DNA of 32,000 nucleotides, taken from positions 270,965 through 302,964 of the forward strand of contig CALSOE010000001.1 of assembly GCA_943787895.1 (NCBI GenBank), given 5' to 3'. Positions within the stretch are counted from its first letter, which is position 1, and each line of letters starts with the position of its first letter. The stretch is from an uncultured Pseudomonadales bacterium. GTDB lineage: Bacteria; Pseudomonadota; Gammaproteobacteria; Pseudomonadales; Porticoccaceae. Shown here one piece after another: positions 5,091 through 11,051 of this stretch. The notes under the pieces are model-generated. The model saw nothing but the letters and a program-made list of their open reading frames with translations, was not told the origin of the DNA and did no database searches. A program made the position numbers and the translations under genes.

Positions 5091-6376
5091 TTTTATTCTG
5101 CTGTGTATACAAGAACCCTAAAATCAAGAAAAATACCGACGTAACTTTATAAGACAAATAGTAATCTATGAATAGATTTCCCAACAAAAAAGTAGCCACT
5201 ACAACGAACTCAACTGAAGCGAGCTTCTTTACTATTTTAGACAGAAACAGGAAGAAGAGAGCTAAGCCCACAAGCCCAAACTCGATAAGGATTCGAAGTA
5301 GGCCGCCATCAAGCGCATTCCCCAACACCCCTCCTCCGATGCCAAATATTACATAAAATAAACCTTGGTTTAAATAACTACTAAAACCCCACAACCACTT
5401 ATTTAGCCTCACCATCACACTTAGATCTGCAGAAGAACTTACAGTTTCGATCAAAGACGATTTTACTGCTCCAGTTTTGAGCAGTACTTGCTGCCTTGAG
5501 AATTCAGCATTACCATCACCGGGATTTTGAGAGGGTGCCATTGCAGTGATTTCCTGCAATGCGTAATACGTATCGCTCGTAAATAGAGAGATAAACCGCA
5601 CAAAAAGATCATTGTTTTCAATCGTTACAAAATTATGCCAGTCCAAATATTGAGCCAATAGTTATAAACCGAGTAACAAACCTGGAATTATTAAGGAATA
5701 TTAACCAGAAAAGATAGCTGGATCCAATCATTACAAGAGCAGTTCTAGATTGAGTAAGTAATATTAGGAACGCAGTAATTACAAAGTAGGCGTGTATCTT
5801 ATTTTTATTTCTATAAAGAAAAAAAATGGGAAAAATAAGCGCCAGCACCATGGATATTTCATAAGAACCATTAGTGGAGCCTGTTGGCTTAGATAAAATT
5901 TTCTTATAGATTCCGTCACTGTAGCCTCCAATTAGTTCTAAATATTGAGCGGTTATAAGAATTGCTGAATAAATCACAAATACACTAAACATAGATAGAA
6001 ATCTTGTTTTGTTGCCAAAAAACCTGCCGAAATAAAAGAATGCCCAGTATTCCATAATCCTCAAAGGGTATAATAAATTACCACGAGAATACGGTAAGTT
6101 TAAAATATGGGAAACAATTGTGCTAAGGAAAAACAACAGAAAATAGAATTCAATCTGTGATGCGCTACCCTTTTTACATATGATAAAACAAAACAAAGGG
6201 GCTGTTAATAAGATTATAATATCATCTATCCTGACACCAGCTCCTTCATATGTTCCAACAGAGATTAAATTTATTTTCGGGATAAATAATAAAACTATTA
6301 GAATAGAAATAAATAGCCTAGATTGTTTAACTCCCTCAAAATCACACCTAGTAAGTCGCATTCTGTATCCTTTCAA
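5080..6376 (-). pseudogene. wzy: Wzy / O-antigen-ligase-like polymerase, split into two overlapping ORFs by a frameshift near 5635-5660
   Basis: ORF 5633-6376 is multi-TM and contains LLTQSRTAL. ORF 5080-5658 contains RLNKWLWGF...FGIGGGVLGNALDGGLLRILIEFGLVGLALFF, typical of the Wzy_C periplasmic loop and following helices. Together they make ~435 aa, a normal Wzy length. The downstream frame opens only 1 codon before its TTG. Confidence 0.6.
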
Positions 6377-7418
6377 ATATCTCTTTATTTGGACTAATTT
6401 CGGTGCAGCAATATTTAATCATTAAATCGCGTAGTTTTTCATAATCGTAGTTTTCAATATCCTCAAGGCATAAAACTATTTCACACCAATTGTAACAAAT
6501 CGGCCTAATTGAAATTTCAGCATAATCAAAATACACTCCGCGGGTTTTATTAAGATACTCGTCCAAATCGAAGGGCGCAAAAATAATGGGTCTTTCATAA
6601 TATAAAAAATCAAATATAATTCCGGAGTAATCGCTTATCAGTACGCTCACATAGGGAAGAATCCTATAAACATCCGGCGTCTCATCCACTTGTATCTGGC
6701 TGAATATTTTCACTTTATTTTTTAGTTCTTGGGATACATTTAGCGATGGGTGTAACCTGATAAGAAATACTTTATTTAACTTCTTCATTAATTTATTAAT
6801 GATTACAAAATCAATATTTTTAAAATAGTCGAAGTCTAATCCGTCCCTAAAAGTAGGTGCATACAAAATAAAACTTGGATCAATACTTTTGGCTTTTATC
6901 CGCGGGTATTTTGCCTCGATAACTTTACAAGAATCTACTTTAAAGGCTTTTGTAAATATCCCACTAAACTTTGGCCCGGGTGATAGCACTAAATCATAGC
7001 GATCATATAGAAATTTTTTTATTCTTTGAGCCAACCCCGTTTCGATATCATGCATAATTTTTTTAAGGGGAGCGCCATGCCATAAATTTACCTTGAAAAT
7101 AGATCGTCTAAACAACATGATTATGGGATTGAAATCACTATATGTTGAGTGAGAACAAATTGATACTCTGGCGGTCAATTGATAAAACATCCCCTTGACA
7201 CTCAGACTGTAATAAATATCGGCTTCTTCATGTACAAGAGACTTCTTCTTTACGATCCAAATGCATCTTATATTTTTTTTATTTTTTTGTACCCAAGAGG
7301 AAAACGCAAAAGGGTTATCAATTATTTTTTTTCCCATCCATGATGAGAATATCCAAACGTTTTTTGAGCTTATAATCAATGGAGTATCTTGTACTATTGA
7401 AGTTTTATGATTTTTCAT
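6348..7418 (-). CDS. CDP-glycerol glycerophosphotransferase family protein (TagF/TagB-like, Glyphos_transf)
   Basis: Family hallmarks are NLWHGAPLKKIMHD, LYAPTFRD, IRLHP and LISDYSGIIFDFLYYERPIIFAPFDLDEYL..RGVYFDY. The gene lies 72 nt downstream of the phosphonate genes on the same strand. Confidence 0.8.
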   Translation of the reverse strand: MKNHKTSIVQDTPLIISSKNVWIFSSWMGKKIIDNPFAFSSWVQKNKKNIRCIWIVKKKSLVHEEADIYYSLSVKGMFYQLTARVSICSHSTYSDFNPIIMLFRRSIFKVNLWHGAPLKKIMHDIETGLAQRIKKFLYDRYDLVLSPGPKFSGIFTKAFKVDSCKVIEAKYPRIKAKSIDPSFILYAPTFRDGLDFDYFKNIDFVIINKLMKKLNKVFLIRLHPSLNVSQELKNKVKIFSQIQVDETPDVYRILPYVSVLISDYSGIIFDFLYYERPIIFAPFDLDEYLNKTRGVYFDYAEISIRPICYNWCEIVLCLEDIENYDYEKLRDLMIKYCCTEISPNKEIFERIQNATY

Positions 7419-7490
7419 CAGAGATAGCTATATCCGTGATTATTAGTTGAGATTCGAAAAATTTAGTAGTCTTATTCTCAGAATTAGCAT

Positions 7491-8615: not shown

Positions 8616-8619
8616 CTGA

Positions 8620-9741
8620 TTACCCCAAGACCTTCATTAAGGCTTCTTTATTCTGAACCGGGCTAGATGTAGGCCTACCGAGCTCACTTCTTGAACCTTT
8701 TCTAACCTTCACCTCAAGTAGATGCGGTCCAGGCTGCCTCTTGATTTTCTCGATGTAATCTAGTATTCCATCGATCTTAGAGACACTCTTGGCAGACACA
8801 TAACCACAAGCTTTAGCTATTAGGGGAAGATTAATCAAATCCGCGCAAGTTGGCTGACCACCTACTGAGTCATGTGCCGCATTATTTAGTATTATATGAA
8901 TCAGATTCTCAGAGCCGGATTGACCCGTGGATGTTAGGTTTCCAAGATGCATAATACTAGCTCCATCTCCATCAATACAAAAAACATGTCTAGTCGTATT
9001 TTGAGCCACACCTAGGGCTATCATTGCGGCATGTCCCATTGAGCCAACAGTTAAGAAGTCATTCCCATGTGATTGTCTATTGGCAACACGAATTTCGAAA
9101 AGCTCCCTTGATGCCATTCCTGTAGTAGATACAAAAATGTCATCATCGCCAGAAGCCTCAACGATTATCTTTATGGCGTCTTCCCTTGACCATTCAGCGA
9201 TGTCTGACATTGTATTCTTTAGATTATATGGGCCAAAGGCACCTTTTTTAACTAACAATATAACCGGATTATTATTAGTAATTGCCGTCGCTACAGCTGA
9301 CTTTAAAACTTCATCGATACTCTTCGTGTCAGAATCAATAATTACCACTGGGAGATCACAGGCATCGAGTAGTCGCTCCATAACCTCACCCTGCTTAATA
9401 TGCTGCGGCTCATCCTTGACTCCTGGCTCACCGCGCCAACCCACCATAACCACCATGGGGATTCCGTACACTTTTGCATCAGCCAATGAAAGCAGTGGAT
9501 TTATAGCATTGCCAAAGCCCGAATTTTGCATATACACTAAAGACGGGCGCTTAGTCGTGATGTACTGGCCAACAGCTAAGGCGATAGCCGAGCCTTCATT
9601 TGCTGTAATTAGATGTTCACTTGTTGTTGTGTTATCAGATATGTACGCACATATGTTTTTCAACAGTGAATCTGGCACACCGCAAAACCTATCAACTCCT
9701 GCGCCTCTCAACGAATCAAAAAATTCTTTCACGTCTATCAT
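8620..9741 (-). CDS. ppd: Phosphonopyruvate decarboxylase (thiamine-diphosphate dependent)
   Basis: 373 aa. TPP-binding motif CIDGDGASIMHLGNLTSTG...IILNNAAHDSVGGQ (GDG-X-NN). Its start overlaps the pepM-fusion stop (TAATG at 9739-9743). The size and the pairing with PEP mutase are characteristic. Confidence 0.85.
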   Translation of the reverse strand: MIDVKEFFDSLRGAGVDRFCGVPDSLLKNICAYISDNTTTSEHLITANEGSAIALAVGQYITTKRPSLVYMQNSGFGNAINPLLSLADAKVYGIPMVVMVGWRGEPGVKDEPQHIKQGEVMERLLDACDLPVVIIDSDTKSIDEVLKSAVATAITNNNPVILLVKKGAFGPYNLKNTMSDIAEWSREDAIKIIVEASGDDDIFVSTTGMASRELFEIRVANRQSHGNDFLTVGSMGHAAMIALGVAQNTTRHVFCIDGDGASIMHLGNLTSTGQSGSENLIHIILNNAAHDSVGGQPTCADLINLPLIAKACGYVSAKSVSKIDGILDYIEKIKRQPGPHLLEVKVRKGSRSELGRPTSSPVQNKEALMKVLG

Positions 9742-11051
9742 TATTTGGTTCCCGGTATGAGATCTAATATTTCCTTAATAGACAGCATCCTCTCATCACA
9801 TTCCAAGGATCGACTGTGTTTTAAGATAGACTGGGCCGTGTCCTTCATAGCAGGAAAAGCACTCCGCAGTAATTGATTCGCATATATGACTATATTAACG
9901 CCCGCCTTCTCCAACTCAGCTTCTGTGATAGAATTAAAGCTGGAAGGAACAACAACCAATGGCTTTTGTCCGCCAAACTCAGCATATTTATGACAGAATT
10001 CAAGTATTTCAGCAGGATCTTTCTTCCGACTGTGAATCATAATCGCATCCGCGCCAGCGCCTAAATACGCCTTTGCTCGCTCAATCGCATCGTCCATGCC
10101 AGCCTCCAGAATTAGGCTTTCTATACGAGATATAACCATAAAGTCATCGGTTACTTGAACGCTCTTAGCAGATGAAATCTTGTCACAGAAATTGTCAATG
10201 GTATCTTGGGTTTGAGGCACTTCATTACCAAACAAAGAGTTTTTCTTTAATCCGGTCTTGTCCTCAATAATAACCGCAGACACTCCTAGTCGCTCTAGCG
10301 TTCTTACGGTGAACTTAAAATGTTCAATCTGCCCTCCTGTATCAGCGTCATAGATGATGGGCTTCGTGGTAACCTCCAGCACCTCGCTTAGTGTGGACAT
10401 TCTTGAGCTTACATCAACCGCTTCAATATCAGGCTTTCCTTTGGCTGTTGAATCAGTAAGACTGCTTCCCCACATACCGTCAAATTGACGAGAAATGCCA
10501 TCTACATCCACTTTAGTATGCTCAATAATGAGCCCACTTAACGCGTTATGAATATCTAAAAACCGGACCAAAGGCTTTGCTTTCAATAAACGACGTAAAC
10601 TAGAGAGACGAATTTGAGGTGTAGTGCCTAATTCTGTTACAGCCTTATTTAAGGCTGTTGATGAAATACCTTGCGTGTACGGTACTTCCACTAACTCTCC
10701 ACCCCACTTTGCTATGGTATCAATGACAGCCTGTCGGGTTTTTTGCTGAACACCATCTTTCCAATCATCACCATGAACGACATAGTCAGGCTTCAAAGCT
10801 TTTAAATTTTCCGTATAATCAAGAGTGGACTGAGGAAGTACTTCATGGACAGTTTTTAAATTACTAACTATTTCTGCACGTTGTTCATAACTCATATAAG
10901 GCAATCTTTTATAACTAGCTATAGCCGAATCCGTTAAGACGCCAACGGATACTTGCCCTAATTCTGATGCAGTTTTTAGTATATTTAAGTGCCCAGGATG
11001 AATCAAATCTGCACTCATCCCAACATAAACTTTTTTCATTTTGTACTCCAT
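9741..11051 (-). CDS. pepM: Bifunctional cytidylyltransferase-domain / phosphoenolpyruvate mutase fusion (Fom1-like architecture)
   Basis: The N-terminal ~130 aa form a HIGH-type nucleotidyltransferase domain ([18 protein letters not shown]). The C-terminal ~290 aa form PEP mutase, with the diagnostic [12 protein letters not shown] (EDK-X5-NS) and DADTGG motifs. Confidence 0.9.

Follow-up and report, generated by a model that had tools for sequence, protein, structure and literature searches.

What does a compact set of phosphonate biosynthesis genes do in the middle of a surface polysaccharide locus? The question is raised by a stretch of 32,000 nucleotides (the window) from an uncultured Pseudomonadales bacterium of the family Porticoccaceae (assembly GCA_943787895.1, contig CALSOE010000001.1, positions 270,965 to 302,964 of the forward strand), in which four intact and closely spaced genes lie at 6348-11051 on the minus strand. 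In gene order they encode a fusion of a cytidylyltransferase to phosphoenolpyruvate (PEP) mutase, a phosphonopyruvate decarboxylase, an Fe-alcohol dehydrogenase (ADH) and a TagF-family transferase. The answer that we consider probable is that the four genes form a self-contained unit which would supply a phosphonate donor, cytidine monophosphate-2-hydroxyethylphosphonate (CMP-2-HEP), and transfer its phosphonate to a surface polysaccharide; the unit lies in the variable, low-GC part of a Wzx/Wzy-type capsule or O-antigen locus. The general idea of such a pathway is already known; what is new here is the hypothesis of a TagF-family transfer step, together with an exchange between tagD and the cassette, in a marine Gram-negative Wzx/Wzy setting.

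All four genes are read from the minus strand. The fusion gene (9741-11051; 436 aa; PF01467 CTP_transf_like and PF13714 PEP_mutase) overlaps the start of the Ppd/AepY phosphonopyruvate decarboxylase gene (8620-9741; 373 aa; TIGR03297) in the sequence TAATG; the gene for the PhpC-type Fe/Zn ADH (7491-8615; 374 aa; PF00465 and PF25137) follows after 4 nt, and the TagF-family Glyphos_transf gene (6348-7418; 356 aa; PF04464) after a further 72 nt. An earlier reading of the letters alone, referred to here as the sequence-only reading, had placed an intact cassette of four minus-strand genes at these positions and with this spacing. The open reading frames (ORFs), which are all whole, and the Pfam and NCBIfam profiles agree with it, and the junctions can be read directly in the sequence. 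Its remark that the window lacks an aminotransferase for 2-aminoethylphosphonate (AEP) and a radical-SAM gene was borne out by a profile scan of every window ORF of at least 80 aa, which found no aminotransferase, radical-SAM or cupin (MpnS/HEPD-type) domain.

The N-terminal part of the fusion protein is a HIGH-type (HPGH) cytidylyltransferase domain (10632..11030, minus strand; residues 8-140; PF01467, 55.7 bits) that is identical at 87 of 133 positions (65%) to the cytidylyltransferase domain of Fom1 (PDB 5X3D, E 4e-57), while the same domain matches Bacillus TagD (1COZ) at an E value of only 1e-9. The Fom1 parallel is stronger than the sequence-only reader could know. Formation of CMP-2-HEP has been shown for Fom1 (PMC6697681), and we predict the same activity for the N-terminal domain of the fusion. 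The PEP mutase domain (9741..10619, minus strand; residues 145-436 and the stop codon; PF13714, 188 bits) and the decarboxylase, both of which the sequence-only reading had named, exceed the NCBIfam equivalog cutoffs, the former with 404.7 bits against 319.55 for TIGR02320 and the latter with 460.2 bits against 312.5 for TIGR03297. The fusion also matches the PEP mutases of PDB entries 5UNC and 1M1B (E 1e-43 and 2e-40), and the Ppm-specific motif EDKXXXXXNS, likewise noticed before, begins at residue 263. The decarboxylase contains TPP_enzyme_N and TPP_enzyme_C domains.

For the ADH, a member of group III, the best NCBIfam model is TIGR03405, that of the phosphonate-associated Fe-ADHs, of which 291 of the 355 model positions are covered. 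The protein belongs to a large marine family with identities of 64-91%, and relatives at 72-77% identity carry the NCBI name phosphonoacetaldehyde reductase. A recent study of PhpC (2026) described the residues that surround the phosphonate, a clamp of Lys157 and Arg349 together with Thr256 and Tyr264, and a metal site of the type Asp/His/His/His, in P. fungorum numbering (PMC13576164). By numbering offset, rather than by direct alignment to that sequence, the ADH of the window carries the clamp set as K158, T257, Y265 and R348 and the metal ligands as D192, H261 and H275, with Q196 at the fourth metal position. Among 51 ADHs that adjoin fusion-decarboxylase pairs and are only 25-40% identical to that of the window, these seven residues are invariant (51/51), and at position 196 there is Q in 38 sequences and H in the other 13. 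The tyrosine four residues after the histidine was considered as a marker of PhpC alone and discarded, as the unrelated Thermotoga ADH 1VHD shares it; only the Lys/Arg clamp is informative. The ADH is predicted to reduce phosphonoacetaldehyde to 2-HEP, the route to 2-HEP that the sequence-only reading had assigned to it and that gene context, the PhpC clamp and metal residues and the NCBI names of its relatives now support.

The fourth protein matches PF04464 with 158.4 bits against a cutoff of 22.1, and TarL and TagF structures in the PDB at E values of about 1e-15. Its H114 (WHGAPLK) and H223 (IRLHP) align with the motifs WH444GTPLK and LRMH584 of TagF, whose His444 and His584 we take to be the catalytic residues; at the position of the second aligned histidine the PDB entry 3L7I has H and 3L7M has A, the latter being, as we read it, an H584A mutant. 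As far as sequence matches can settle it, the fold membership of both the transferase and the cytidylyltransferase is settled by these matches to the solved structures of TagF, TarL and Fom1. The transferase contains no hydrophobic (membrane) segment. We predict that it uses CMP-2-HEP to place a 2-hydroxyethylphosphonyl group on a repeat-unit hydroxyl; the donor context argues for CMP-2-HEP because the window encodes no stand-alone TagD and the cassette lies directly upstream. One position drew attention as a possible marker of donor specificity. In the motif DYS[S/G], at residue 266 (window 6621-6623, the position of TagF Ser625), the transferase of the window has a glycine, and an alignment of 40 sequences has glycine there in 10 of 14 cassette-linked and 1 of 26 TagD-linked transferases (Fisher p about 1e-5), with serine in 24 of the 26 TagD-partnered ones. 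We do not retain it as a marker: the TagD-linked transferase of L016 has Gly, the cassette-linked one of L087 has Ser, and the sequences are phylogenetically non-independent.

The closest distinct relative of the transferase is P0003, which shares 61% identity and is found in the marine contigs L016-L018. After it in L016 come homologues of the two genes that lie downstream of the cassette in the window, the Wzy-like gene (62%) and the 423-aa gene (47%), and it is preceded not by a cassette but by a stand-alone cytidylyltransferase of 135 aa, a true TagD by its match to 1COZ (E 1.6e-35, compared with only 2e-9 for 5X3D). More distant members of the clade present both arrangements, L087 (48%) having the cassette and L019 (44%) a TagD, and in a neighbour-joining tree calculated without bootstrap support the TagD-linked and cassette-linked transferases interleave. 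In a sample of 80 environmental TagF-like loci the partner was TagD in 25 and PepM in five; four of these five contain the full ordered cassette, where the TagD probe had no match beyond the fused domain. On the simplest reading of these sequences tagD and the cassette look interchangeable, as two modules either of which can supply the donor to one kind of transferase. Such a swap would be chemically sensible, for in cytidine diphosphate (CDP)-glycerol and in CMP-2-HEP alike the phosphorus carries a short hydroxyalkyl chain and has CMP as its leaving group.

The order fusion, decarboxylase, ADH and Glyphos_transf recurs in L025 and L087, in two gammaproteobacterial metagenome-assembled genomes (MAGs) from NCBI (L024 and L023) and in the JGI contigs L093, L098, L103 and L122. 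The flippases and glycosyltransferases downstream vary among these loci, and the adjacency extends to transferases with only 17-31% identity to that of the window. A scan of one genome per species yielded 57 species-level loci with a fusion at 52-73% identity, from Gammaproteobacteria, Bacteroidales, Ignavibacteria, Campylobacterales, Clostridia, Actinomycetota and archaea; the decarboxylase is present in 55 of the 57 and the ADH directly alongside in 46. Of the ADH-positive loci with at least 1.5 kb of downstream sequence, 18 of 33 have a Glyphos_transf ORF, in 13 cases within 500 nt, and all ten of the Glyphos_transf ORFs that were checked pass the Pfam threshold. These include that of a Stackebrandtia sp. 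MAG, whose locus (L054) encodes a fusion with 63% identity, a decarboxylase and an adjoining Glyphos_transf protein. Downstream of cassettes that lack a TagF-like gene there are, for example, a sulfatase-family protein (L035:14582-16369), LicD (L052:12473-13300) or a sulfotransferase-like protein (L026:8492-9457), all candidates for alternative phosphonate transferases or tailoring enzymes; other such neighbours are a glycosyltransferase or ORFs without a Pfam match. The pairing of the cassette with Glyphos_transf is therefore frequent and not obligatory, and TagF-like proteins are one of several transferase classes found with the cassette, the commonest in this sample. Across these loci (L026-L082) the fusion is kept at 52-73% identity between distant phyla and the adjoining ADH has diverged to 25-40%; because the fusion is so unusually conserved across distant phyla, frequent horizontal transfer of the module is suggested. 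The synteny among marine Gammaproteobacteria and across phyla, with the sister locus in which tagD takes the place of the cassette, lends support to the cell-surface glycan reached through a TagF-type transferase that the sequence-only reading had proposed as the sink of the phosphonate.

The pathway that these genes would encode can be followed from PEP to polymer. The PEP mutase domain would convert PEP to phosphonopyruvate, the decarboxylase would pull this unfavourable equilibrium forward by forming phosphonoacetaldehyde, the PhpC-type dehydrogenase would reduce the latter to 2-HEP, and the Fom1-like domain would join 2-HEP and cytidine triphosphate to give CMP-2-HEP. In the fifth step a hydroxyl of a sugar (or of a glycerol-like group) in the undecaprenyl-linked unit would attack the phosphonate phosphorus with departure of CMP, as in TagF with CDP-glycerol, to leave a phosphonate ester, glycan-O-P(O)(O-)-CH2CH2OH, and the Wzx-like, Wzy-like, Wzz, Wza and Wzi proteins would then flip, polymerise and export the unit. 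The first four steps are predicted from close homology to characterised enzymes, while the transfer itself we infer from the gene neighbourhood, the catalytic residues and the exchange of tagD for the cassette; the acceptor and the stoichiometry are likewise proposals.

Several observations weigh against this proposal. The transferase scores 98.9, 64.6 and 21.7 bits against the TarF, TarL and TarB equivalog models, far from their cutoffs of 550, 1000 and 500, and the ADH, with 244.5 bits, stays under the TIGR03405 cutoff of 423.7. In the 40-sequence alignment no residue cleanly splits the cassette-linked from the TagD-linked transferases. The nearest distinct relative adjoins TagD, so the transferase might prefer CDP-glycerol made elsewhere in a genome of which 32 kb are seen, and about 45% of the informative cassette loci are without Glyphos_transf and have LicD, sulfatase-type or unidentified neighbours instead. 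Finally, the wzy, wza, wzz, rmlD and epimerase genes are interrupted in this copy, and even with the proposed chemistry correct the polymer may not be assembled in this strain.

Two other accounts of the same genes were considered. According to one, the transferase is an ordinary glycerol-phosphate or CDP-alditol enzyme fed by a tagD outside the window, and CMP-2-HEP is used by some other transferase acting on a lipid, a protein glycan or a small molecule. The TagD beside the 61%-identical relative, the greater frequency of TagD as a partner (25 of the 80 environmental loci), the LicD or sulfatase-type neighbours of other cassettes and the confinement of our view to 32 kb of the genome are all compatible with this account. 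We nevertheless think it improbable, as only 72 nt lie between the ADH and transferase genes in a block that resembles an operon, and cassettes in other loci adjoin transferases with as little as 17-31% identity to this one. Moreover, no separate TagD was seen in the four loci with a full cassette among the 80 environmental ones, and the window contains no other candidate phosphonate transferase. According to the other account 2-HEP is a mere intermediate: an MpnS, HEPD, methyltransferase or AEP transaminase encoded outside the window would convert 2-HEP or phosphonoacetaldehyde to methylphosphonate, AEP or another phosphonate, which would then be attached. In marine microbes 2-HEP is indeed the precursor of methylphosphonate (PMC9381506, PMC13576164), the rest of the genome lies beyond the window and the ADH falls below its equivalog cutoff. 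Yet none of those genes occurs in the window, the genes checked directly downstream of the cassette in L023-L025 and L087 encode transferases or belong to polysaccharide synthesis, the fused domain shares 65% identity with a cytidylyltransferase specific for 2-HEP, and most marine clusters end at 2-HEP, with phpC far commoner than mpnS or hepD (PMC9381506); we regard this account as highly improbable.

A different question is how many phosphonate groups each unit would receive. The transferase might build chains of oligo- or poly-(2-hydroxyethylphosphonate), with the hydroxyl of the last 2-HEP as the acceptor, and thus a phosphono analogue of poly(glycerol phosphate). Like glycerol phosphate, 2-HEP keeps a terminal hydroxyl, and the best PDB matches, TagF and TarL, are polymerases. 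The protein of 356 aa, however, corresponds to the minimal catalytic domain only, the Wzy-like and Wzx-like genes imply a sugar repeat unit, and the actinomycete 2-HEP glycans carry 2-HEP as hexose or glycerol esters and not as a polymer, so that chain formation by this enzyme appears quite improbable to us. The gammaproteobacterial MAG L023 has two Glyphos_transf genes by its cassette (12647-13756 and 16088-17158), which counts in favour of chains; they recall primase-polymerase pairs and may attach more than one 2-HEP per unit.

The setting of the cassette is a long polysaccharide locus with all genes on the minus strand, towards which a fragment of a family-4 glycosyltransferase converges from the opposite strand. 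From upstream to downstream the order is phosphomannomutase, a NusG/RfaH paralog, wza, wzi, rmlA, rmlC, rmlD, rmlB and wzz, followed by an AT-rich leader, the four cassette genes, a Wzy-like gene, the polytopic 423-aa gene, a family 2 glycosyltransferase (GT2) and an epimerase. The block for export and regulation (wzi, wza and the NusG/RfaH paralog; 16425..21173) has Pfam matches to Poly_export, SLBB and Caps_assemb_Wzi, the rmlB, rmlD, rmlC and rmlA genes for the supply of dTDP-L-rhamnose (12971..16361) were likewise assigned by Pfam, and the gene of the Wzz-type co-polymerase (11793..12826) has a GNVR match. Wza (OPX), Wzi, Wzz-type and nucleotide-sugar genes are thus co-oriented in one block, by which capsule and O-antigen loci are recognised. 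Across 2424-11792 the GC fraction is 0.32-0.43, compared with 0.49-0.54 in the conserved export and rml genes, as is usual for the serotype-specific segment of these loci, which is exchanged horizontally.

Downstream of the cassette, the Wzy-like polymerase gene (5080..6376, here in two ORFs at 5633-6376 and 5080-5658) encodes a protein with about 9-11 hydrophobic segments and one large hydrophilic loop, whose match to Wzy_C (E 9e-4, 19.5 bits) is under the threshold of 31.7. The putative Wzx-like flippase (3819..5090; 423 aa) has about 10-14 hydrophobic segments and no Pfam or NCBIfam match, and was assigned by position only; an identification by similarity failed, the protein being unlike the PF01943 flippase of L024. 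The names wzy and wzx are thus weakly based, on position, hydropathy and homology to the neighbours in related loci. The GT2 (2424..3368; PF00535, E 1.2e-10; 291 aa as called in metagenome contigs) would contribute to the repeat unit, which is probably small because the locus has one GT2, a family-4 initiating transferase, rml genes and an epimerase; a HexNAc (N-acetylhexosamine)-rhamnose core is our speculation as to its composition. Of the flanks described in the sequence-only reading, the GT2 and rml genes hold, while wzy is split by a 1-bp insertion and the naming of both wzy and wzx is tenuous.

Between wzz and the cassette lies an untranslated, AT-rich leader (11052..11792, minus strand; about 742 nt, GC 0.32) with no ORF of at least 50 aa. 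An ops-like core, GCGGTAGC, is found in it at 11447-11454 on the minus strand, 396 nt upstream of the start of the fusion gene, and the core TGCGGTAGC(C/T) also occurs in non-coding leaders at L025:1227, L023:6139, L024:6104, L002:13974 and L009:1828. Because such cores recur in the leaders and a NusG/RfaH paralog is encoded in the window (20640-21173), RfaH-type antitermination by way of a variant ops is suggested. A canonical RfaH ops site was also sought; the sole exact GGCGGTAG in the window lies within the ADH gene, where it encodes GGGS, at chance frequency. The leader has no Rfam JUMPstart match at either the gathering threshold or E<=1.

Proteins of 'Porticoccaceae bacterium', strain MOLA455 and HTCC2207 share 92-94% identity with the phosphomannomutase, and one of a SAR92 MAG shares 88%; these homologues place the host as a marine gammaproteobacterium of the SAR92 clade (Porticoccaceae). 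An identical transferase protein is present in 26 blocks of the assembly collection, and the whole variable region occurs at 98-99% nucleotide identity in the marine metagenome contigs L001 and L008-L015; the record names of such near-identical contigs suggest an origin in North Sea and Mediterranean time series. A metagenome scan based on the transferase sequence alone yielded no confirmed relative, and one with an alignment returned mostly transferase relatives at 25-35% identity. An origin in Escherichia coli was discarded, as megablast gave no match to the cassette in 5,426 complete genomes of that species.

Comparison with five to eight of the near-identical metagenome contigs defines the interruptions of this copy. 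One extra A near 5633 (GGCATAATTTTG compared with GGCATATTTTG) creates an in-frame TAA that splits the Wzy-like gene, intact with 426 aa in at least seven near-identical contigs, and one extra G near 19573 frameshifts wza, intact with 834 aa in L002-L006; neither is a simple change of homopolymer length. Dense substitutions and indels at 12000-12900 break wzz, which here consists of at least three ORFs and is intact at 312-321 aa in L001, L002 and L009; a dense patch at 14173-14570 truncates rmlD to 247 aa, compared with 319 aa in L002 and L006, and another at 1197-1440 splits the epimerase. A further short patch of this kind lies at 15741-15747 inside otherwise 99%-identical sequence. That the locus is decaying in this genome and exports no polymer, with the intact cassette a remnant or kept for another purpose, is the view that these lesions would favour. 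Over 1441-11999, however, only five substitutions and the one insertion separate the window from L008 and L013, unlike long-term decay, and the clustering of the patches resembles consensus errors or strain mixing in the assembly. Such breaks arise in assemblies too, as in L015, where the 423-aa wzx-like gene is itself split (7037-8307) into ORFs of 258 aa and 165 aa. The dense patches look like a strain-mixture consensus, recombination tracts or local assembly error and not like uniform decay, and the lesions may be either real pseudogenisation or assembly artefacts; decay of the locus we hold to be possible but doubtful.

The predicted donor-supply and transfer unit combines elements of several known systems. 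The same PF01467-PEP mutase architecture is found in Fom1 of the fosfomycin producer Streptomyces wedmorensis, where a phosphonopyruvate decarboxylase and a PhpC/FomC-type ADH likewise supply 2-HEP for cytidylylation (PMC6697681). There, CMP-2-HEP serves for a time as the handle for methylation by a radical-SAM enzyme, and its CMP is taken off afterwards; the window has no such genes, its next gene encodes a TagF-family transferase in a polysaccharide locus, and CMP is predicted to be the leaving group. The system of TagD and TagF for glycerol phosphate, which serves teichoic acids and capsules or O-antigens decorated with glycerol phosphate, shares the transferase fold family, both aligned histidines and a CMP-linked donor from which CMP leaves, but the donor predicted here has a C-P bond and no glycerol C3 unit, and its cytidylyltransferase is Fom1-like and not TagD-like. 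The tailoring of surface glycans with AEP by PntC and LicD (Rice et al. 2019, PMC6697681) follows a common logic of a Ppm-fused nucleotidyltransferase, cytidylyl activation and transfer to a glycan; it relies on a LicC-like PF12804 domain, AEP formed by a transaminase, and LicD, in place of the PF01467 domain, the 2-HEP formed by an ADH and the TagF-like protein of the window.

Closest in predicted product are the phosphonoglycans of Glycomyces sp. and Stackebrandtia nassauensis, in which 2-HEP is ester-linked to an exopolysaccharide (Yu et al. 2014, as cited in PMC8942020 and PMC13576164); these producers are Gram-positive actinomycetes with methylated galactans, in contrast to a Gram-negative marine host with Wzy-like, Wzx-like, Wzz, Wza, Wzi and rhamnose genes. 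A 2-HEP exopolysaccharide has been purified from the genus Stackebrandtia (PMC8942020). The marine methylphosphonate clusters pepM-ppd-pdh-mpnS of Nitrosopumilus maritimus and some SAR11 share the habitat, the same three steps to 2-HEP and a predicted exopolysaccharide ester (PMC9381506, PMC8942020), but have been described with sulfatase-type, LicD and adenylyltransferase genes, while the window lacks MpnS and has a Fom1-like fusion and a TagF-like transferase. Fusions of PF01467 to Ppm make up 23.6% of Ppm enzymes (PMC6697681) and PhpC-type neighbourhoods 8.5% of the inventoried clusters (PMC8942020). In ocean metagenomes phpC reaches 64-76% of the abundance of pepM, and mpnS and hepD are each present in <1.5% of surface communities (PMC9381506). 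Ester-linked 2-HEP has been found on polysaccharide in marine dissolved organic matter and in two actinomycete exopolysaccharides (PMC9381506, PMC13576164), and ethylene is a product of the breakdown of such esters by C-P lyase (PMC13576164).

Against this background the membership of the locus in the known class of cytidylyl-activated 2-HEP glycan clusters is supported by its gene content. The sequence-only reading had supposed that a pathway from CMP-2-HEP to a glycan through a TagF-type transferase was uncharacterised; the concept is less novel than it assumed, since the fusions, the 2-HEP neighbourhoods and the 2-HEP glycans have all been published, and it was right in so far as we found no TagF-type precedent. 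Our literature search, which was incomplete in coverage, revealed no work that joins glycerophosphotransferase, phosphonate and PEP mutase, no statement of a TagF-family phosphonyl transferase or of an interchange between tagD and the cassette, and no work that ties SAR92 to phosphonate synthesis. Neither glycerophosphotransferases nor PF04464 are mentioned in two key inventories (PMC6697681, PMC8942020).

Elsewhere in the window a tRNA-Leu(CAG) at 25337-25423 on the plus strand is followed by a stretch of lower GC (26000-30000; 0.37-0.43), whose ORFs have no Pfam match or match DUF6804, a cytochrome b561-like/DUF4405 protein and a MarR regulator. This stretch may be a small integrated island.

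The chemically proven producers of 2-HEP glycans are two soil actinomycetes only, and the enzyme that attaches the phosphonate to the glycan is uncharacterised for 2-HEP. The locus described here offers a compact, soluble TagF-like candidate of 356 aa for that role, a natural control enzyme in the form of the 61%-identical, TagD-paired transferase, and an ecological anchor in the SAR92/Porticoccaceae populations, near-identical copies of which occur in many marine metagenome assemblies. We tentatively extend the proposal to the family as a whole: TagF proteins may include true phosphonyl transferases, and a swap of the donor module may interconvert a hydrolysable glycerol-phosphate decoration and a phosphatase-resistant C-P decoration with transferase, polymerase and flippase retained, while some loci with two transferases may build short chains of poly-2-HEP. 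If the predicted transfer is true, the annotation of phosphonyl transferase could be given to TagF-like genes that adjoin pepM cassettes, and phosphonate-decorated capsules would become predictable from sequence in many phyla.

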